From Lachnospiraceae bacterium (lineage in GTDB: Bacteria; Bacillota; Clostridia; Lachnospirales; Lachnospiraceae): 37,489 bases of DNA. The notes under the pieces were generated by a model that made no database searches, was not told the DNA's origin, and saw nothing but the letters and a program-made list of their open reading frames with translations. Numbering within the stretch: position 1 is the first letter of the stretch; each line of letters opens with the position of its first letter. Location of the stretch: positions 1-37,489 of the forward strand of contig JAFOFP010000140.1 of the NCBI GenBank assembly GCA_017387285.1. Reading direction: 5' to 3'. The translations under genes and the position numbers were made by a program. Of this stretch, positions 1,525 through 21,603 are shown one piece after another.

Positions 1525-2862
1525 TCAGATGTTATTTGTAGTTGCCTTTACCAGTAACACGCGACGGGTCTCGTCTGTCACCCGGAATTTCTCACTGGCC
1601 CGATAACCCACGATCCAGACAACCTCATCGCCGCTGACCAGCAGCGGGATACGGTCTCTCTGCCCCGCCGGAATCTTTGCATTGATCATGTACTCTTTCA
1701 CCGACTGGCTGCGCCCGTCGGCAAATACAACCAAGCTGTCCCCGGTTTTTCGTGTTCTCAGGCACAATTTAACTTTTATTTTATCATAATCAAAGCATTT
1801 CGTATACGGGTCCGATGCAATTTTTTCAACTTTTTCCGGAGAAATTTCGCAGACAGACAGCTCCACGGGGATCATGCCGGTCTCTTTATCCTCATTCACA
1901 GTGAAAAAAAACAACTGATCATACTCCCTGCGTACACTCCGACCTCCGGGCAGACAGATGGTTTTCCCCCCGGTCTTCCCAAGAAGGCTCCGGATCATCT
2001 CCACATGCTCCGAGGTAATATCCTTAAGCCCACCAAGCTCTCCCAAACGCTTTCGGATCAGATATCCCTGCAATGCCCGGTCTGCAGCCTTCAGCGGCTC
2101 AACGGGAAGTGATCCCGATTTTGCGTAAGTTTCAATCCACCTCTCTGCCTCAGCCTCCATATGGTCATCGATATCCCGCAAAATCCCGGCCATTTTGGTC
2201 AGATGATCAACTGCGTCTGAGTTGAATTCCCGCTCCAGATAAGGAATCAACTCGTGGCGAATGCGGTTGCGGCTGTACACCACTTCCTGATTGGTGGAAT
2301 CCTCGCGCCAGCAAAGCCCTGCCTCAGACAACGTCTCCTCAATCTCCGTTCTGCGCAGATCGATCAGCGGACGAATGATCTTACCCTGAATGGGTGCGAT
2401 CCCGCAAAGGCCTTTGATCCCGCTGCCCCTCACCAAATTAAACAGAATGGTCTCCGCAGAGTCATCCCGGTGGTGAGCCACCGCCAGCTTGTGAGCCCCC
2501 ACTCTCTCCATCTCCTCAAAAAAGAAGCCATAGCGAACCGTTCTTCCGGCTTCCTCCACCGTCATTTTCTCCTGCAGGGCAATGGACGGCACATCTGCCC
2601 GGATCACCCGGCAAGGTACCTCCAATCCATCGCACTGTTCCCGGACAAACTCCGCATCACGGTCCGCCTCTGCGCCACGGATCCCATGGTGCACATGAAC
2701 CGCAAGAATATCTATCTTCATCGACTCGCGAAGTGATGCCAACGCGTGAAGCAGCAAAACCGAATCGGCGCCTCCCGACACACCTACCACGATCGACTCG
2801 CCGGAAGCGATCAATCCGGTTTCTTTTATTCTATTCACAATATGCTCAAATAGATTACTCAT
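1525..2862 (-). CDS. tilS: tRNA(Ile)-lysidine synthetase
   Basis: 445-aa ORF with the N-terminal PP-loop motif VGVSGGADS. Length and the position upstream of hpt-ftsH both fit TilS. Confidence 0.92.
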   Translation of the reverse strand: MSNLFEHIVNRIKETGLIASGESIVVGVSGGADSVLLLHALASLRESMKIDILAVHVHHGIRGAEADRDAEFVREQCDGLEVPCRVIRADVPSIALQEKMTVEEAGRTVRYGFFFEEMERVGAHKLAVAHHRDDSAETILFNLVRGSGIKGLCGIAPIQGKIIRPLIDLRRTEIEETLSEAGLCWREDSTNQEVVYSRNRIRHELIPYLEREFNSDAVDHLTKMAGILRDIDDHMEAEAERWIETYAKSGSLPVEPLKAADRALQGYLIRKRLGELGGLKDITSEHVEMIRSLLGKTGGKTICLPGGRSVRREYDQLFFFTVNEDKETGMIPVELSVCEISPEKVEKIASDPYTKCFDYDKIKVKLCLRTRKTGDSLVVFADGRSQSVKEYMINAKIPAGQRDRIPLLVSGDEVVWIVGYRASEKFRVTDETRRVLLVKATTNNI

Positions 2863-2953
2863 TGTTTATGCCTGCCTATTTATACATTTCTTCTATATTT
2901 TACACGTTCAGGGGAATAGTGGCAAGCACATTTTCATCCCACCGACTCTCACT

Positions 2954-4564
2954 TCATTTCTTCCAGATGCCGGCAGCCAACACGGTCATATCATCCATCC
3001 GTTTTCCACCGCATCGGCAGGCAAAATCCAACACCTGTCTGGCGATGTCCCTGGGGTTGTTGGAGGAAATAGCGGACAGCAACGTCATCATGGATGCCTC
3101 CTTGTCCGTCTCGGCGAGGGCATCCAAGACTCCATCGGTGACCATAACGATCATATCTCCATGGCCAAGCTCCCGCTTCTCCGTCATGGGTACAGCCTCA
3201 GCCAATATCCCCGCGGGAAGGGATTCTGCCCGAATCGTTTCCACGGTTCCCTCCCGACGAAGGAACGTGGTGACAGCTCCCAGCTTGGTAAAACAGCAAT
3301 CGCCGGTAAACAGATCCACCGTGGCAAGATCCAGCGTCACCGGTCTTTTTTTGCCTCTTTGGAGCATCACGGCATTGATCAGTCTGGCTGCCGCTTCCTC
3401 GCCGTAACCGGCCATCAGCAGCTTTTCTGCCAGGTCCATCACTGCCTCACTGTCTTTGGCCGCCTGTTCCCCGGTTCCCATGCCATCAGAAAGTCCCAAA
3501 ACCGCTTTCCCCGATCCGATGCGCATACAGGAGAAATTGTCACCGGACGTCTCAGAGTCCTCTCTGGTTTCCCTGACCACATCGTAAAGCATGTGGTAAC
3601 CCGGATCCTCCCGAAAACAAATCTGTACCGACTCCTGACCGATCACCGCTCTGGCATTTTCCTCCGGTCTCAATTCCCTGCCCATGGCCCGGCTCAACGG
3701 CGCAGCCAGCTCTCTGACCGGAATACACCGTTTTCTCATGGCCCTCACCGTCAATGCAACGGCAAGCCTTTCCTGTCTGTCCTTCAGAATATTCAGTCTC
3801 TCCAACAGAATTTTCTTTTCCTTAAGGGCTTCCCCCACTCGTCCTTCCCAGTTTCCGGTCACATCCTCCATTTCCTGATATTCCTCCAGGAGAGTACCGA
3901 TCAATCTGGCGGTCTCACCCATTCCCACAGATGCCGCCATTTTTTCTTCCAGATAACCGGTATACCAGGTAATGGCCTGGCTATATCCCTCTCCGGGCTC
4001 CCAATGCTTGTCCGGCACTTCCTTATAATAATCGGACAGCAGCGCAAGCACCTCACCGATGGAATGGAGTCTCACTGCCGCCGCCTGTTCATAGTCGATC
4101 CCTGCCGATGCACTCTTTCGCTTTAACCGATTGACATCCAACCCTCCCGGATAGATCTCCGGGATCAGCAGAAAAATCAATCCGCCTCCGCACATCCCAT
4201 AAAAATTATCAGCCAGAAATATCGGTCCTCCGGTCAGCGATCCCAAAATAAACCCACACAAAAACGCTGTCAGGCTTCCCTTTCTTCCCAATCGGCGAAA
4301 CAAACCGGACAATGCTCCCGCCATGAGACATGCCGGCAGAAAAGCTCCACTCTCCCCTTGGGAAATGCGTGCCAACCCACAAAAAATCCCGGCAACTGTC
4401 CCCGGCACAGTTCCCAGGCGATATCCTGCCACCAAAATCAACACATACATTAACGTCTCCACAGCTGACAAGGCGAAACCGCTCTGCCCCGCCATGGCCG
4501 TGATGGCCAATCCTCCCAATAAAAATGCTCCCGTTTTTGCCAGCCATTGCGCCTGCTCTTTCAT
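2954..4564 (-). CDS. spoIIE: stage II sporulation protein E-like PP2C phosphatase (short membrane domain)
   Basis: 536-aa ORF. The N-terminal ~140 aa are polytopic and hydrophobic. The C-terminal PP2C/SpoIIE domain carries GDNFS, SDGMGTG and MVTDGV motifs. GGTGAGG RBS upstream. The position upstream of tilS matches the Bacillus spoIIE locus. Confidence 0.8.
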   Translation of the reverse strand: MKEQAQWLAKTGAFLLGGLAITAMAGQSGFALSAVETLMYVLILVAGYRLGTVPGTVAGIFCGLARISQGESGAFLPACLMAGALSGLFRRLGRKGSLTAFLCGFILGSLTGGPIFLADNFYGMCGGGLIFLLIPEIYPGGLDVNRLKRKSASAGIDYEQAAAVRLHSIGEVLALLSDYYKEVPDKHWEPGEGYSQAITWYTGYLEEKMAASVGMGETARLIGTLLEEYQEMEDVTGNWEGRVGEALKEKKILLERLNILKDRQERLAVALTVRAMRKRCIPVRELAAPLSRAMGRELRPEENARAVIGQESVQICFREDPGYHMLYDVVRETREDSETSGDNFSCMRIGSGKAVLGLSDGMGTGEQAAKDSEAVMDLAEKLLMAGYGEEAAARLINAVMLQRGKKRPVTLDLATVDLFTGDCCFTKLGAVTTFLRREGTVETIRAESLPAGILAEAVPMTEKRELGHGDMIVMVTDGVLDALAETDKEASMMTLLSAISSNNPRDIARQVLDFACRCGGKRMDDMTVLAAGIWKK

Positions 4565-11165: not shown

Positions 11166-11238
11166 GTTCCGCTAGCTCAGTTGGTAGAGCACCTGACTCT
11201 TAATCAGGGTGTCCAGAGTTCGAGCCTCTGGCGGAGCA
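11166..11238 (+). tRNA. tRNA-Lys (anticodon CTT)
   Basis: Hand-folded cloverleaf. Acceptor GTTCCGC/GCGGAGC (one G-U) with discriminator A. D arm GCTC-AGTTGGTA-GAGC. Anticodon stem CCTGA/TCAGG with loop CT-CTT-AA. T arm CAGAG-TTCGAGC-CTCTG. No encoded CCA. Confidence 0.93.
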
Positions 11239-11402: not shown

Positions 11403-11714
11403 TCAAAGTCCCTCTTCGATGTTGCGTCCGCTGTACATCACACGAACAATCGAAACCTTTTTCAATCTTTCATTTGCAATATAAAACAACACATAATTAT
11501 CTACCGGGAGGACTCGCAAGCCTCGATTTTTCCAAGGTTCCTTTTCGTATTTTCTATGCCTCATAGGATATTCCTTTAAGCTAAGGATACCTTTCTCCAA
11601 GCGTCTAAGCTGGCCAATTGCATTCTCAGGAGCAAGTAAAACAAATGCAATATATTCGTAAATGTCCCTCAAATCTCTCTCCGCCTGCAAAGAAATCTCT
11701 ATTTCATAATTCAT
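11403..11714 (-). CDS. type II toxin, RelE/ParE family
   Basis: 103-aa ORF. It overlaps the upstream antitoxin ORF by 4 nt (ATGA). The N-terminal ...AERDLRDIYEYI... and C-terminal IVRVMYSGRN resemble RelE/ParE-family toxins. Confidence 0.82.
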   Translation of the reverse strand: MNYEIEISLQAERDLRDIYEYIAFVLLAPENAIGQLRRLEKGILSLKEYPMRHRKYEKEPWKNRGLRVLPVDNYVLFYIANERLKKVSIVRVMYSGRNIEEGL

Positions 11715-12019
11715 GCCTTGTAATCCTCATATATATCCGCAAACACCGTTTCGACTGGTTTTGTCCGTCCATTAAGGACCTCCACATAACCTTTCTCTAT
11801 CTCAGTGTTCAATTCTTCCTCTGACAATACGGACATATCTAAGGGTTTTGATGCCGGTAGTTTTACTTCAAACGGCAATCCTCGCTGCAGAATTATCTGC
11901 TTATAAAACATATTGATCGCATTCGAAACCGAAATTCCCAAAGCACTTAAGATGCTTTCCGCCTGATTCTTTATGTCCGGTTCAATCCTTGCATACAAAT
12001 TCGCAGTTTTTAATGCCAT
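11711..12019 (-). CDS. type II antitoxin, RelB/DinJ family
   Basis: 102-aa ORF with an N-terminal ribbon-helix-helix-like segment (NLYARIEPDIKNQAESILSALGISVSNAINMFYKQII), as in DinJ/RelB. It is translationally coupled to the toxin. Confidence 0.82.
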   Translation of the reverse strand: MALKTANLYARIEPDIKNQAESILSALGISVSNAINMFYKQIILQRGLPFEVKLPASKPLDMSVLSEEELNTEIEKGYVEVLNGRTKPVETVFADIYEDYKA

Positions 12020-18348: not shown

Positions 18349-18897
18349 TTATCCTTCCATCTGCCGTCCGAGAAATCCGGCAGCCGTGAGTGCCAGTTTC
18401 TGCTCCAGTGCCCCCATTTTCTGTTTGGGATTCTTTTCCAGCATGAGCACAGAGCCGATGGCATCCCCCTCGCTGATAATGGTGGTGACCACCTCCTGCT
18501 CATAGCCCTCTTCTTCCTCCCGAAGGATCTGAATATGTTCCCGATCACCTTTCGAAGCCAGAATACTCTCCCGTCCGGCGATCGATCGCTCCAATTCCTT
18601 GCTGATATTTTTACCGGCCAGCTCCCGGTATCCGGCACCGGCTGCCGCAATAACCTGATCCCGGTCTGTGATCAGTACTCCCCGGCCACTGGTCTGTGCG
18701 AGAGCCTCAGCGTACTGTCTGGCAAACAGGCCCATCTCCGCCACCGGAGAATATTTTTTCAGAATGATCTCACCCTCGCGGTCAGTGAAAATCTCCATGG
18801 GTACCCCTTCGTGGAGGCGAAGAGTGCGGCGGATCTCCTTGGGAATCACCACGCGGCCAAGATCATCTATACGGCGTACAATACCTGTTGCTTTCAT
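18349..18897 (-). CDS. spoVT: stage V sporulation protein T (AbrB-family forespore regulator)
   Basis: 182-aa ORF. The N-terminal SpoVT/AbrB swapped-hairpin domain is MKATGIVRRIDDLGRVVIPKEIRRTLR, followed by a GAF-like C-terminal domain. AAGGAGA RBS. Confidence 0.92.
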   Translation of the reverse strand: MKATGIVRRIDDLGRVVIPKEIRRTLRLHEGVPMEIFTDREGEIILKKYSPVAEMGLFARQYAEALAQTSGRGVLITDRDQVIAAAGAGYRELAGKNISKELERSIAGRESILASKGDREHIQILREEEEGYEQEVVTTIISEGDAIGSVLMLEKNPKQKMGALEQKLALTAAGFLGRQMEG

Positions 18898-18980
18898 ATA
18901 TACATTTCTCCTTAAATTACAAATTGTGTTGATAGTATCTGTAATTGTGGGAGAAATATACTGCAGGATTTACTATTTCA
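18869..18980 (-). repeat. copy A of the spoVT 5'-end/promoter repeat (functional copy)
   Basis: It aligns by eye with 20427-20540. Shared blocks are ATACGGCGTACAATACC, GTTGCTTTCATA, CTCCTT, TACAAATT, TAGTATCTGTAA, GGAG, TATAC and ACTAT. Confidence 0.75.
18933..18961 (-). promoter_or_regulatory. candidate forespore (sigma-F/G-type) promoter of spoVT
   Basis: On the minus strand: GTATA (18961-18957), 17-nt spacer, GATACTA (18939-18933). This resembles the sigma-G consensus (GHATR - 17/18 - CATXHTA). The same elements and spacing recur at 20494-20522. Confidence 0.45.
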
Positions 18981-19039
18981 AGTAGTTGTGCTATAATAAT
19001 ATATATTTATTTTGCTTGATTAGGAAGGTCTGATTGTTT

Positions 19040-20287
19040 ATGAAAAATATGACTTTGAAAAAAATATTTTTTGGTGTATTAAAATGGTGCGCACTCGGGG
19101 TACTGATAGGAACACTTGGCGGATTAATTGGCGCATGCTTTGCACATTTATTGTCTTTTGTAACAAGACTACGTCAGGCAGAGCCGTGGCTCATTCTTCT
19201 ATTGCCCATTGGCAGCATCGCAACTGTTTTACTATATCAGGTTTTCAATATGCATAATTACGGCGGAACAAATGAAATCATTCTCTGCCTTACAAATAAA
19301 AAACCAATCAGAACAATTGCTGCACCGCTTATATTCATTTCCAGTGCAATCACGCATCTTTTTGGAGGTTCCGCCGGACGAGAAGGTGCAGCACTTCAGT
19401 TGGGCGGAGGGGGAGCGGCCGCCCTTTGTACTGTGTTACGATTAAAAGATGATGACCGCAGCGTTGCTGTTATCAGCGGCATGTCCGCAGTATTTGCAGC
19501 CTTATTTGGCACGCCTCTTACTGCAGCATTTTTTGTTTTAGAATTTAAATTAAGTTTCAAAGTCATTGGTAGGGCTATCTTGCCTTGCTTTATTTCTTCT
19601 ATTGTTGCCACCAAGCTTTCTTCTACCTTGGCAGTTGCCTCAGAAACAGTACATATTAGCAGCATTAACACTTTCACCTTTCCCACCATTGCAAAAATAA
19701 TTATTTTGTCACTGGGTCTCAGCATATTAGGGCGGCTCATGTGCCTTGCATTCCACAAAACAGATCATTTGATGAGACGCCTTATTCCAAACGCTTTCCT
19801 TCGCACTGCGTTAGCCGCTGCCATAATTGTTGCATTAACCGCAATTGTGGGCGATATGCGTTATAATGGCTCTGGTATGTCCATGGCAATAATGGCTATA
19901 GAAGGAAAAGCAGATTGGTTTGACTTTATTTTAAAAATCGTTTTTACTGCCGTTACCTTAGCTGCGGGATTAAAAGGCGGAGAAATTGTTCCTACTTTTT
20001 GTGTCGGTGCAACCTTCGGCTGTGTTTTTGGCGGTATGTTAGGCTTAGATTACGGATTTGCAGCAGCGCTTGGTTTGGTAGGCTTGTTCTGTTGCGCTAC
20101 AAACAGTCCTGTAAGTGCCGTTTTTTTAGGTGTTGAGATGTTTGGATTTAGTGCACTGCCGTATTTTATAATTATTTGTATATTCCTTTGGCTTTTGTCA
20201 GCCAATAATGGTCTGTTTGAAAACAGATTTTTTAAATCTCCAATTTTTTCAAGAATAAGAAAACAAGGAACAACAAAAGCGAGGTGA
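19040..20287 (+). CDS. CLC-family anion channel/antiporter without CBS domains; motifs suggest the CLC-F (fluoride/H+ antiporter) clade
   Basis: About 415-aa polytopic ORF (ATG at 19040; alternative TTG at 19034; AGGAAGG RBS). It contains GREGAALQLGG (gating Glu) and GLKGGEIVPTF, where canonical CLCs have GxFxP. No GSGIP motif. Much AT-richer than the flanks. Confidence 0.82.
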   Translation: MKNMTLKKIFFGVLKWCALGVLIGTLGGLIGACFAHLLSFVTRLRQAEPWLILLLPIGSIATVLLYQVFNMHNYGGTNEIILCLTNKKPIRTIAAPLIFISSAITHLFGGSAGREGAALQLGGGGAAALCTVLRLKDDDRSVAVISGMSAVFAALFGTPLTAAFFVLEFKLSFKVIGRAILPCFISSIVATKLSSTLAVASETVHISSINTFTFPTIAKIIILSLGLSILGRLMCLAFHKTDHLMRRLIPNAFLRTALAAAIIVALTAIVGDMRYNGSGMSMAIMAIEGKADWFDFILKIVFTAVTLAAGLKGGEIVPTFCVGATFGCVFGGMLGLDYGFAAALGLVGLFCCATNSPVSAVFLGVEMFGFSALPYFIIICIFLWLLSANNGLFENRFFKSPIFSRIRKQGTTKAR

Positions 20288-20303
20288 AATTCACCTCGCT
20301 TTT
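20279..20303 (+). terminator. rho-independent terminator of the CLC gene (overlaps its stop codon)
   Basis: GCGAGGTGA-aat-TCACCTCGC, a perfect 9-bp stem followed by TTTT. Confidence 0.72.
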
Positions 20304-20313
20304 GCTATGTATA

Positions 20314-20421
20314 AAAACCGCCCAAAACCCGTTTTTGACACCAATGCGTTAAGTGGGGCAAACCAGCGAAAACCCTAGTGTTTATGCGGGTTTCAGGCGG
20401 TTTGCCCTATTATAACGCATT
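20314..20421 (-). other. structured non-coding element with mutually exclusive helices (terminator/antiterminator-like)
   Basis: Helix A, 20314-20331 with 20387-20403: 7+8 bp around a 2-nt mismatch, followed on the minus strand by TTTTT. Helix C, GGGCAAACC (20356-20364) with GGTTTGCCC (20399-20407). Helix B, AATGCGTTA (20343-20351) with TAACGCATT (20413-20421). B+C nest and compete with A for 20399-20403. Confidence 0.4.
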
Positions 20422-20455
20422 CCTCGATACGGCGTACAATACCAGTTGCTTTCAT
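20393..20455 (-). pseudogene. 5' remnant / second copy of the spoVT start (20-codon ORF MKATGIVRRIEECVIIGQTA)
   Basis: The first 10 codons match the real spoVT at 28/30 nt and are identical in amino acids. AAGGAGA RBS is retained. Similarity is lost after about codon 12, and a stop follows at 20393-20395. Confidence 0.7.
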
Positions 20456-20540
20456 AATATATAAAATCTCCTTGCTTTACAAATTTGTACTGTTAGTATC
20501 TGTAAAACAAGGAGTTTTATACTTATGACAAACTATCTTT
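20427..20540 (-). repeat. copy B of the spoVT 5'-end/promoter repeat
   Basis: See copy A. By eye, roughly three quarters of positions are conserved outside the near-identical coding start (not computed). Confidence 0.75.
20494..20522 (-). promoter_or_regulatory. second copy of the sigma-F/G-type spoVT promoter
   Basis: On the minus strand: GTATA (20522-20518), 17-nt spacer, GATACTA (20500-20494). Both hexamer blocks and the spacing are identical to copy A, although the spacer sequence differs. Confidence 0.4.
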
Positions 20541-20548
20541 TCGTTTCT

Positions 20549-20827
20549 TTATTTTCCATAATTTTTAAGTTCTCTCGGAGTGCAACCAAAATACTTTTTC
20601 ACAACCCTTGCAAAATACTTTGAATCATTAAACCCACTTTTCTCTGCCGCCTGTTCTATCACCATTCCGCAAGCGATCAAATTTCTGGCATGTTCCAACC
20701 TTAATTGTGTTATATATTCGATTGGCGTTTTATCGTAATATTTTTGAAAAAGCATTCTTAAATTTGTCGCTCCAATTCCCGATTTCTTACAAATTTCTTC
20801 TATCGCCAGGGTATTTTCTGTATAGTA
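20549..20827 (-). pseudogene. AraC-family C-terminal (HTH) fragment lacking the N-terminal sensor domain
   Basis: The open frame from 20827 to the stop at 20549 encodes about 92 aa covering both AraC HTH units (LAIEEICKKSGIGATNLRMLFQKYYDKTPIEYITQLRLEHARNLI...SKYFARVVKKYFGCTPRE). An in-frame TGA lies immediately upstream (20830-20828). The only ATG (20755) gives 68 aa with half a domain and no RBS. Confidence 0.6.
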
Positions 20828-20841
20828 TCATCTCAGTTGTT

Positions 20842-21603
20842 TTATTGAAAATCTAAGTTTCTTTTTTGTTTTCGATAAACCGTTGGTGTTGTTCCCGTAA
20901 AATCCAAAAATTTGCGGTCGAAATCACGCAGAGAAGAAAAGCCACATTCCTCGGCGATCTGAGAGATGGTCTTATTGGTGGATTTTAAAAGTTCCTTTCC
21001 TTCCTGGATCCGCAAGAGGTTAACGTATTGGTTGTATGTTATGCCTATGGATTTTTTAAACAATTTCGAGAGGTAGGCATAATCATATCCTGCCCTCGAT
21101 ATTGCATCACGCAGCAGACATTTTTGCTTATAATTTTCATTTGCATACAACAATACCGACATAACCTGGTCCTGTGAAAAAAATTTCTTCTCTATGTATT
21201 CTCTGCCCTTTTCAAAACAGCCACATATATTGTAGGCAATCGAACGGCGCAAAAACAAATTATCGTCCTCGCTCTGTGTCCAGATAAATTCAAACAAATT
21301 GTCAATCGGAATACGCCGGTTCTTCTCATTATAAAAATCAGGGACAAGATTCGGAGAGAAAAAGCAAATCACATATTCACCGTTTTCCACGGTTTTATAT
21401 GAATGATATTGGAACGGAAAAATCAATACAGCCTGCCCCGCTTTAAGCACATACTGCTTTTCGTCGATAACCACCTCAGTAGTACCCCCAAGCTGCAAAT
21501 AGAACTCAAAGGAGCGATGAATATGCTTCATGAAGGACAAATTTTGCCCTTTTGAAATTTTGAACTCTTGCTCATTAAATGAATGTTTTCCCTCAAAAAG
21601 CAT
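20842..21603 (-). CDS. AraC-family transcriptional regulator (cupin sensor + HTH)
   Basis: 253-aa ORF with an N-terminal cupin-like domain (HIHRSFEFYLQLGG...VLIFPFQYHSY) and C-terminal AraC HTH units (YLSKLFKKSIGITYNQYVNLLRIQ...ISQIAEECGFSSLRDFDRKF). Divergent from the ThuA-like gene. Confidence 0.87.
   Translation of the reverse strand: MLFEGKHSFNEQEFKISKGQNLSFMKHIHRSFEFYLQLGGTTEVVIDEKQYVLKAGQAVLIFPFQYHSYKTVENGEYVICFFSPNLVPDFYNEKNRRIPIDNLFEFIWTQSEDDNLFLRRSIAYNICGCFEKGREYIEKKFFSQDQVMSVLLYANENYKQKCLLRDAISRAGYDYAYLSKLFKKSIGITYNQYVNLLRIQEGKELLKSTNKTISQIAEECGFSSLRDFDRKFLDFTGTTPTVYRKQKRNLDFQ

Follow-up and report, generated by a model that had tools for sequence, protein, structure and literature searches.

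Cis-mobilizable elements (CIMEs), which occur at the sites used by integrative and conjugative elements (ICEs) as well as integrative and mobilizable elements (IMEs), such as those related to ICESt1 in Streptococcus thermophilus, contain no genes for integration or transfer and keep att sites (PMC5704250). They accumulate in tandem where related autonomous elements have their target, and the integration of one of these adjacent to them could set them moving. Here, we describe a cassette that resembles CIMEs in these respects, located in a 37,489-nt stretch of DNA from a Lachnospiraceae bacterium (assembly GCA_017387285.1, contig JAFOFP010000140.1), the whole of which is referred to as the window. 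The cassette carries a gene for a CLC-family channel/transporter and lies at the 5' end of spoVT, the gene of a forespore regulator. With a probability of roughly three in four, we consider it a small mobile unit without a recombinase, inserted site-specifically between codons 10 and 11 of spoVT, where it substituted its own promoter, ribosome-binding site (RBS) and ten codons for those that it cut off, probably through the large serine recombinases of bigger elements.

Like a CIME, the cassette has no integration or transfer genes, the CLC gene being its only gene. A CIME, however, keeps both attL and attR of its parent, whereas the cassette has the attL side only, in the form of a tail that resembles the left end of a larger element (in contig L171, described below); its other boundary is a spoVT promoter with ten codons and does not correspond to the element right arm ..TTGACACGTTGA. 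No autonomous element in tandem with the cassette was found in the contigs examined, which are short. Furthermore, the cassette site is associated with serine recombinases and CIME systems with tyrosine recombinases, and the spoVT cassettes are expression units of 1-7 kb with shared promoter and terminator modules.

In staphylococci, the staphylococcal cassette chromosome mec (SCCmec) and pseudo-SCC elements involve tandem large serine recombinases, leave the end of their target rlmH (orfX) functional and form composite arrays with recombinase-less cassettes. The spoVT site likewise has tandem large serine recombinases, a conserved gene end that is not destroyed and arrays that include cassettes without recombinases. 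Because the 5' end of spoVT is targeted, and not the 3' end as in rlmH, the cassette must supply a promoter, an RBS and a start codon. The hosts also differ, the spoVT hosts being anaerobic spore-formers, and the recombinases scored 42-110 bits against the NCBIfam models of CcrA, CcrB and CcrC, far under the cut-offs of 700-900; the locus does not classify as SCC. TnpX of Tn4451 crosses over at GA. A GA at the exchange point, as well as enzymes with Resolvase, Recombinase and zinc-ribbon domains, is common to Tn5397 (TndX; PMC4430133), Tn4451 (TnpX) and the element of contig L144 described below. Those transposons each have a single recombinase of their own and do not rebuild the target, whereas at spoVT the large element has three recombinases in tandem and the cassette has none.

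Integrons resemble the spoVT site in their fixed capture site, arrays of small cassettes, diverse cargo including defence-like genes, and cassettes without a recombinase. The spoVT cassettes differ in that each has its own promoter and terminator, and the capture site lies inside a coding sequence (CDS). No tyrosine recombinase gene corresponding to intI was found beside spoVT in the window or the cassette loci; 22 cassette tails gave no consensus of attC kind, and the cassette is not promoterless, having an extended -10 promoter-like site. Nor does the cassette contain a DEDD transposase of IS110 type, which was seen only as a separate insertion in contigs L008-L010. The large-serine-recombinase elements skin in sigK and SP-beta in spsM interrupt mother-cell genes and are excised in the mother-cell genome, which is not inherited. 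The element in L144 does interrupt spoVT, but spoVT is a forespore gene and the window cassette leaves it uninterrupted. The spoVT cassette is thus distinct from all compared systems in its target, the 5' end of a forespore regulator gene, in the promoter, RBS and ten codons that it supplies, and in its shared promoter and terminator modules. Literature searches on the spoVT integration site, on integron-like arrays in Lachnospiraceae and on spoVT together with serine recombinases found no description of the cassette family.

The CLC cassette at the 5' end of spoVT

The first-pass annotation of the window had proposed that a direct repeat of the spoVT promoter, RBS and first codons brackets the CLC gene. 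The repeat is real. The 29-nt pattern ATGAAAGCAACNGGTATTGTACGCCGTAT, which covers the first 29 nt of spoVT, matched the window exactly twice on the minus strand, at 18869-18897 and again at 20427-20455 (none expected, 100 shuffles). A direct-repeat search of the window returned three families with a common offset of 1558-1561 nt, namely D3 (36 nt, 92% identity, 18863-18898 versus 20421-20456), D18 (19 nt, 84% identity) and D1 (42 nt, 71% identity). Pairwise alignment of the copy at spoVT (copy A) with the distant one (copy B) recovered the annotated blocks, including TTACAGATACTA, GTATA, AAGGAGA and the ATG with ten codons; similarity ended after codon 10, where copy A continues into GATGATCTT of spoVT and copy B into GAGGAATGCG. 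The identities of both genes were confirmed by Pfam and NCBIfam models (Table 1). SpoVT scored 242.6 bits against TIGR02851 (cut-off 235.9), with both its AbrB/MazE-type N-terminal domain and SpoVT_C matched, and the CLC protein scored under the NCBIfam cut-offs for ClcA and ClcB.

A look-up of the HU protein of the window gave contigs of the same species, whose flanks match the window at 98.6-99.7% identity. In two of them, L150 and L142, the cassette is absent, and the promoter and gene start of copy B (block B and core B) run unbroken into ..CGT ATA GAT GAT CTT GGC.., a single spoVT promoter abutting the AraC genes. L143 and L145, also of this species, are occupied like the window. Since the empty alleles are contiguous with block B and core B and share the ACT of codon 4, copy B represents the original promoter and gene start. 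Copy A has ACA at this codon and is identical in all CLC contexts except the chimeric L001, and therefore came with the cassette. Copy A is functionally the true 5' end of spoVT, as annotated, but historically it is the import and copy B the native one.

The cassette has spread horizontally. The interval 18868-20425 is 99.2-100% identical in contigs L001-L009, where its neighbours are unrelated. L003 has all 1558 nt of the cassette at 100% identity, but only 77.6% identity in the adjoining spoVT, 88.4% in hup and 77.7% in yabO-yabP; this contrast signifies a recent horizontal transfer whose edge falls exactly at the repeat. The exact 415-aa CLC protein was found in 132 blocks of the assembly collection, with many differing neighbourhoods, and in L007 a TetR-family gene lies next to the CLC cassette at the place of spoVT in the window. 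Exact look-ups returned no record for the SpoVT protein of the window, and only short contigs ending at the repeat for the 253-aa AraC protein. The phage collection contained no match, and the plasmid match was to a spoVT gene only. Two viral-contig matches to the 19-mer of the end module (Table 1) lacked the hairpin and were chance matches. A phage or plasmid origin was set aside.

The empty sites and the contigs sharing the cassette bear out the annotation in its view that an insertion brought its own spoVT 5' region and rebuilt the regulator beside foreign DNA, and that the repeat is not a target-site duplication. Drift after a duplication is not the source of the differences upstream of the ATG, where the annotation had seen drift: the two promoters are of different origin. 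Decay of a paralogue is likewise excluded by the empty sites within the species and by the same cassette ends in other species.

In the orientation of spoVT, the cassette comprises the tail, a terminator-like hairpin, the CLC gene in antisense, a bidirectional promoter module, and the ATG with ten codons. Counting the A of the ATG as position 0, the cassette-borne core (core A) is chimeric from position 20 in L001 only. Together with 18866-18867 and the native codons, core A would form a regenerated attB-like site. The promoter of block A was read as a -35 element GTATA (18957-18961), a 17-nt spacer and a -10 element GATACTA (18933-18939), with the putative RBS AAGGAGA at 18907-18913. Of 78 genomes without a cassette, 28 have the pattern GTATA-N17-ACAGATAATA upstream of native spoVT, compared with 3 of 1600 random windows; judged by the sigma-G/F consensus, we take it to be of forespore type. 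The cargo promoter-like site is the best sigma-70-type match in the region (10/12); other cassettes also show its TATAAT box and the motif AGTAAA, the reverse complement of TTTACT. The end module contains a perfect 15-bp hairpin (arms 20274-20288 and 20290-20304), includes a predicted terminator-like structure of 18 pairs (20270-20308) and looks like a bidirectional terminator. Core B now begins a 20-codon open reading frame (ORF), MKATGIVRRIEECVIIGQTA, which ends within the tail. Rfam scans of the window and of 18800-20700 returned a tRNA gene at 11166-11238 alone, with no riboswitch or known RNA in the tail.

Table 1. Coordinates of the spoVT locus and its cassette in the window
Feature	Position	Strand	Basis
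spoVT CDS, 182 aa	18349..18897	-	Pfam SpoVT_C (PF15714) and MazE_antitoxin (PF04014); NCBIfam TIGR02851
spoVT codons 11-182, native	18349-18867	-	18349-18865 98.6-99.6% identical in same-species contigs with and without cassette
spoVT codons 1-10, cassette-supplied	18868-18897	-	
Mobile cassette, 1,558 bp (GA crossover included once)	18868..20425	-	Absent in L142/L150; repeat offset 1558
Proximal GA, first two bases of codon 11, putative crossover	18866..18867	-	Breakpoint analysis
Core A, cassette-borne ATG and codons 2-10 (MKATGIVRRI)	18868..18897	-	Travels with the CLC gene in all contexts
Block A, cassette-borne putative spoVT promoter and RBS	18898..18967	-	Read from sequence
Cargo promoter-like site: TTTACT, 17 nt, TATAAT, with upstream TG (extended -10)	18969..18997	+	Sequence match
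CLC-family channel/transporter gene, 415 aa, ~41% G+C	19040..20287	+	Pfam Voltage_CLC, E=5e-51
End module, ACATAGCAAAAGCGAGGTG then hairpin	20270..20310	-	Inverted repeat I15; 19-mer kept in unrelated cassettes
Tail, 115 nt, begins GAGGAATGCGTTATAATAGGGC at 20425 reading downwards	20311..20425	-	Like the left end (P' arm side) of elements at the site
Distal GA, attL-like junction of native core and tail	20424..20425	-	Breakpoint and junction comparison
Core B, displaced native ATG and codons 2-10	20426..20455	-	Equals L150 empty allele except codon 10 third base
Block B, displaced native promoter and RBS (GTATA, 17 nt, GATACTA, AAGGAGA)	20456..20540	-	Contiguous with spoVT in L150/L142

The GA dinucleotide and recombinase-bearing elements

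The contexts of the cassette delimit the exchange point. Those that share the CLC tail and differ upstream are identical down to position 30, with the first mismatch at 29, the third base of codon 10. Those that share block A and core A and differ downstream first mismatch at position 32. The exchange is thus confined to the invariant GA at positions 30-31. Elements of large serine recombinases have a 2-bp crossover; here the GA alone remains, and a recombinase element also joins spoVT there (see below). Judged from the junctions, exchange confined to GA is as expected for a serine recombinase. A central GA is the reported target feature of TndX, a clostridial large serine recombinase (PMC4430133). 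A Xer/dif-like site at TATATATTATG was considered and dropped, as the junction does not lie there.

A protein-domain search revealed no recombinase, of the large serine kind or any other, in the window or the cassette, consistent with the annotation, which had seen no recombinase gene. Without one, the cassette can be no more than a non-autonomous dependant. In L144, a contig of the same species (flank 99.4% identical), tandem large serine recombinase genes lie directly upstream of a 5'-truncated spoVT. Two of them are complete; the third is cut off by the contig start, and what is left of it corresponds to the C-terminal part of a 577-aa recombinase that is complete in L152-L159. The three recombinases measure 577, 567 and 523 aa. 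All three contain Resolvase, Recombinase and Zn_ribbon_recom domains. The first and second also show weak matches to DUF4368, which occurs in TnpX/TndX-type enzymes. The element, with its right end ..TTGACACGTTGA, meets spoVT at ..CTCTCTTGACACGTTGA followed by GATGATCTTGG, the same GA as that of the cassette. This right end also abuts codon 11 in eight additional contigs (L152-L159), comprising seven further spoVT alleles in varied genomic backgrounds, which indicates that the element is specific for the spoVT site. The right end was absent from viral contigs.

A left end at the site is seen in L171, another contig of this species, in which the GA connects native block B and core B to GATGATTGAGTTATAATAGGACAAAAG.., followed by genes for DUF5348, RepA_N and ParA-like proteins. 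As the left end of this large element is a cassette-type tail, the cassette tail is best read as an att arm that ends up in attL. At 3633-3657 of L144, ~125 nt inside the right end, we observed an inverted motif resembling a tail start. Its opposite strand gives GGTGCTCGTGTAATAATAGGGGCAA, to be compared with GAGGCTCGTGTTATAATAGGGCAA at the start of cassette tails.

The wider cassette family

More than 30 other cassettes with a common architecture are arrayed upstream of spoVT. A search with the 19-mer ACATAGCAAAAGCGAGGTG of the end module yielded 46 metagenome stretches, four of which (L109, L115, L123, L125) have no hairpin and are chance matches. In spoVT orientation, the family plan consists of a tail, a hairpin, one or several cargo genes that may point either way, a bidirectional promoter module, and the ATG with ten codons. 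We identified 31 unique tail junctions in which the ten codons are followed by GA(G/T)G..TATAATA.., and four further variants; GA(G/T)G comes directly after codon 10, and the ~30 tail variants all begin GA(G/T)G..G(G/T)TATAATA. Tails fall into length classes of 66 nt, ~144 nt and ~150 nt, and the family promoter block reads GTATA, 17 nt, (C/G)ATA(A/C)TA. The cassettes measure ~1-7 kb, and arrays have up to six cores, many of them ending at a full-length spoVT. Cores differ mostly at synonymous positions, including CGN versus AGA, as expected if each core was once a working gene start.

The cargo is diverse and includes AraC regulators, acyltransferases, major facilitator superfamily (MFS) and CLC transporters, a glycyl-radical enzyme, and TIR-TPR and OLD-type ATPase proteins. 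Defence-like cargo of the TIR-TPR/Sel1 and OLD-family AAA-TOPRIM ATPase kinds was seen at 3105-5966 of L106, 840-3545 of L136 and 3381-5150 of L120. A Pfam survey found no recombinase family occurring twice among 147 non-redundant ORFs of cassette loci, and no recombinase among the ten largest cassette ORFs. RNAalifold gave no consensus structure for 22 tails, as would follow from many tails being chimeric, and the idea of the tail as a conserved hairpin, attC-like or a small RNA, was abandoned on this result. Among 80 reference-genome spoVT loci, only that of a Faecalimonas metagenome-assembled genome (L086) has a cassette, with esterase-like cargo; 79 of the 80 contain one copy only, and no second intact paralogue adjoins any of them. 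With 69% identity in the best reference-genome match, the host has no close representative there.

Other insertions were noticed at these loci. A second insertion point lies at about codons 32-35 of spoVT, where displaced copies keep the promoter and ~34 codons and continue with CTGACAACATTGACAC..GACAG..GATACATAG (L001 9760-9858 and 19255-19359; L005 2263-2364; L006 1132-1233; L009 1708-1809; L106 2901-3010; L147 1-290). The tail at this point differs from those of the GA site, yet ends in the same ACATAG motif, followed by a hairpin in L106. L147, from the species of the window, shows a fusion of spoVT with a foreign ORF at GGGGTACCC. GC-rich palindromes resembling miniature inverted-repeat transposable elements, with ends GTAGGGGAYGGCG...CGCCGTCCCCTAC, lie inside or replace promoter blocks of displaced copies (L001 ~11420-11500; L002 ~1595-1680; L006 ~2795-2880; L008 3491-3560; L122). 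GC-rich insertions of ~30-150 nt also occur in the ten-codon core just after ATGAAAGC (L094, L096, L124; L005 ~111-170) and look like another small element that prefers this sequence.

Possible routes of movement and consequences

The sequences show the insertion with its exact limits, the empty site, the horizontal spread, the family and recombinase elements at the same dinucleotide; the acting enzyme and the route are our inference. We propose that the cassette is exchanged at the invariant GA that opens codon 11, most likely by large serine recombinases of larger elements that use the same GA. The distal junction, between native core and tail, would correspond to attL, and the proximal junction, between cassette core and spoVT, to a regenerated attB. 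Such an attB can take the next element, and arrays can build up in this way. Movement may then proceed in four steps: a recombinase-bearing element integrates at the regenerated attB; the composite of cassette and element excises through the outer attL; the composite integrates into spoVT of a new host; and the element later excises alone through the inner attL, leaving the cassette behind. Accretion and cis-mobilization of this kind have been described for CIMEs (PMC5704250). The route calls on canonical reactions only, and is the least certain part of our proposal. The SpoVT protein remains unchanged (MKATGIVRRI...), but its expression is now driven from block A, which is imported. Pushed upstream, the native promoter and ten codons read into the tail and would be stopped by the hairpin, which should shield the CLC gene from antisense transcription.

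Several observations weigh against this proposal. Breakpoints off the GA were found at position 20 (L001), at ~65-67 in the tails of L004 and L006, and at ~-6 in L097 compared with L105 and in L146, indicating that homologous exchange between conserved modules happens too. The third base of codon 10 in copy B (20426) is C in the occupied alleles that have copy B on the contig (window, L145, L007/L170), whereas it is A in five alleles without the CLC cassette: the empty L150 and L142, and L171, L146 and L148. The C could stem from one mutation in the recipient lineage of the cassette. The left end in L171 and the right end in L144 were not linked as one element; walks from both ends failed, and homologues of a 205-aa protein and of RepA_N led to other elements without joining them. 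No contig had the cassette and the recombinase element in tandem, which is a weak absence given short contigs. The att sites of large serine recombinases span about 40-50 bp with imperfect dyad symmetry about the crossover. In the reconstructed site ..TCTCTTGACACGTTGA-GA-GGCTCGTGTTATAATA.., ACACG and CGTGT are equidistant from the GA, and the dyad symmetry of this attP, with matches at 8 of 16 positions by eye, is only suggestive. Moreover, canonical large serine integrases are not known to pair attB with an attL-like site, and a free cassette circle could therefore move directly only under relaxed specificity.

Such relaxed specificity is the premise of another explanation, in which a free circle, with core A joined to the tail, is inserted in trans by a TnpX/TndX-like serine recombinase and no hitch-hiking takes place. 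The circle joint would read ..CGCCGTATA GA GGAATGCGTTATAAT.., and no such joint was found; the pairing of an attL-type site with attB, foreign to canonical large serine integrases, also counts against direct capture. In its favour, substrates and products would be the same two kinds of site (core/tail and core/spoVT), making the reaction freely reversible. The newest cassette of an array lies next to spoVT, cassette order varies between contigs (as with the TetR-family gene beside the CLC cassette in L007), and no composite with the large element was found. The weak DUF4368 matches in two of the three recombinases agree with it as well. The spoVT 5' end might then be the serine-recombinase counterpart of an integron in gut Clostridia, capturing and releasing promoter-cargo-terminator circles at the GA of codon 11. 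Each capture would swap the promoter and ten codons, displaced promoters would record past events, and the second site at about codons 32-35 would behave alike. We put this forward tentatively, as a possibility that we would not favour.

Homologous recombination alone, with RecA-dependent crossovers in the promoter/core and tail/hairpin modules and no site-specific enzyme, is unlikely. The flanking modules are indeed conserved (70-100% identical over ~100-180 nt), and some breakpoints lie inside them (L001, L004, L006, L097/L105, L146). However, six different upstream partners of the CLC cassette (window/L007, L001, L002, L005, L008-L010) switch at 29/30, and the downstream partners all switch at 31/32 except L001. 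A naive spoVT offers homology on one side only, and the GA is the exact point in L003 where identity drops from 100% to 78%, even though homology to spoVT goes on beyond it. The data already point to many independent acquisitions that share the GA junction.

A tyrosine recombinase (IntI-like or phage-type) or an IS110-type DEDD recombinase as the mover is more doubtful still. The array architecture recalls integrons, and an IS110-family transposase gene directly follows the cassette in L008-L010. However, no tyrosine recombinase is linked to the cassette arrays, the one in L164 belonging to an unrelated element; the junction identity of 2 bp is too short for the overlap region of a tyrosine recombinase, and the tails lack a conserved hairpin of attC kind. 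The IS110-family gene (413 aa; L008 ~1835-3470, also in L009 and L010) lies between the RBS and the ATG of the displaced spoVT copy beyond the CLC cassette. IS110 was rejected as the mover because this is a separate insertion off the cassette junction; its target is the same conserved region.

A single illegitimate recombination, as the annotation had suggested, or a duplication in situ with later drift or paralogue decay, would suit the 71-84% identity of the copies upstream of the ATG but is refuted by the empty sites within the species and by the recurrence of the cassette, with unchanged ends, in other species. Over 30 sister cassettes enter one exact dinucleotide of spoVT, copy A is identical in all CLC contexts (L001 chimeric) and has thus not drifted from copy B, and reference loci are single copy in 79 of 80 cases with no second intact paralogue adjoining.

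Under the site-specific insertion that we favour, spoVT offers a route of gene flow in which recombinase-less cassettes of ~1-7 kb with diverse cargo enter one exact point of an important sporulation gene. Its function is not lost, as each cassette brings along a replacement promoter and gene start. Foreign DNA thereby repeatedly takes the place of the spoVT regulatory region, and this could alter the timing or level of a master forespore regulator between otherwise identical strains. Recombinase-bearing elements, which sever the 5' end of spoVT, predict sporulation-defective subpopulations. The recombinases and their defined GA site are candidate tools for genome engineering in Clostridia. 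The conserved 19-mer of the end module is a simple handle for finding cassettes, and ..TTGACACGTTGAGA.. a further search sequence.

The repeats may also account for the frequent breaks of metagenome assemblies just upstream of spoVT. Assemblies often break within a few hundred bases upstream of the gene (L024, L052, L054, L061, L064, L093), and in L011-L013 the break falls at the AraC-side repeat, a pattern that a repetitive or polymorphic region in the populations sampled would be expected to produce.

Across 18.8-23.6 kb of the window, G+C drops from ~0.5-0.55 to 0.33-0.45. The low-G+C AraC-ThuA-GFO block at 20.5-23.5 kb is present in empty and occupied alleles alike, and is thus a separate, older feature outside the cassette event. 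A 68-aa C-terminal AraC fragment (20549-20755) lies there beside the full 253-aa AraC gene (20842-21603). Elsewhere in the window, the tRNA gene at 11166-11238 lies beside a two-gene pair (11403-12019) that resembles a RelE/RelB-type toxin-antitoxin system by eye.

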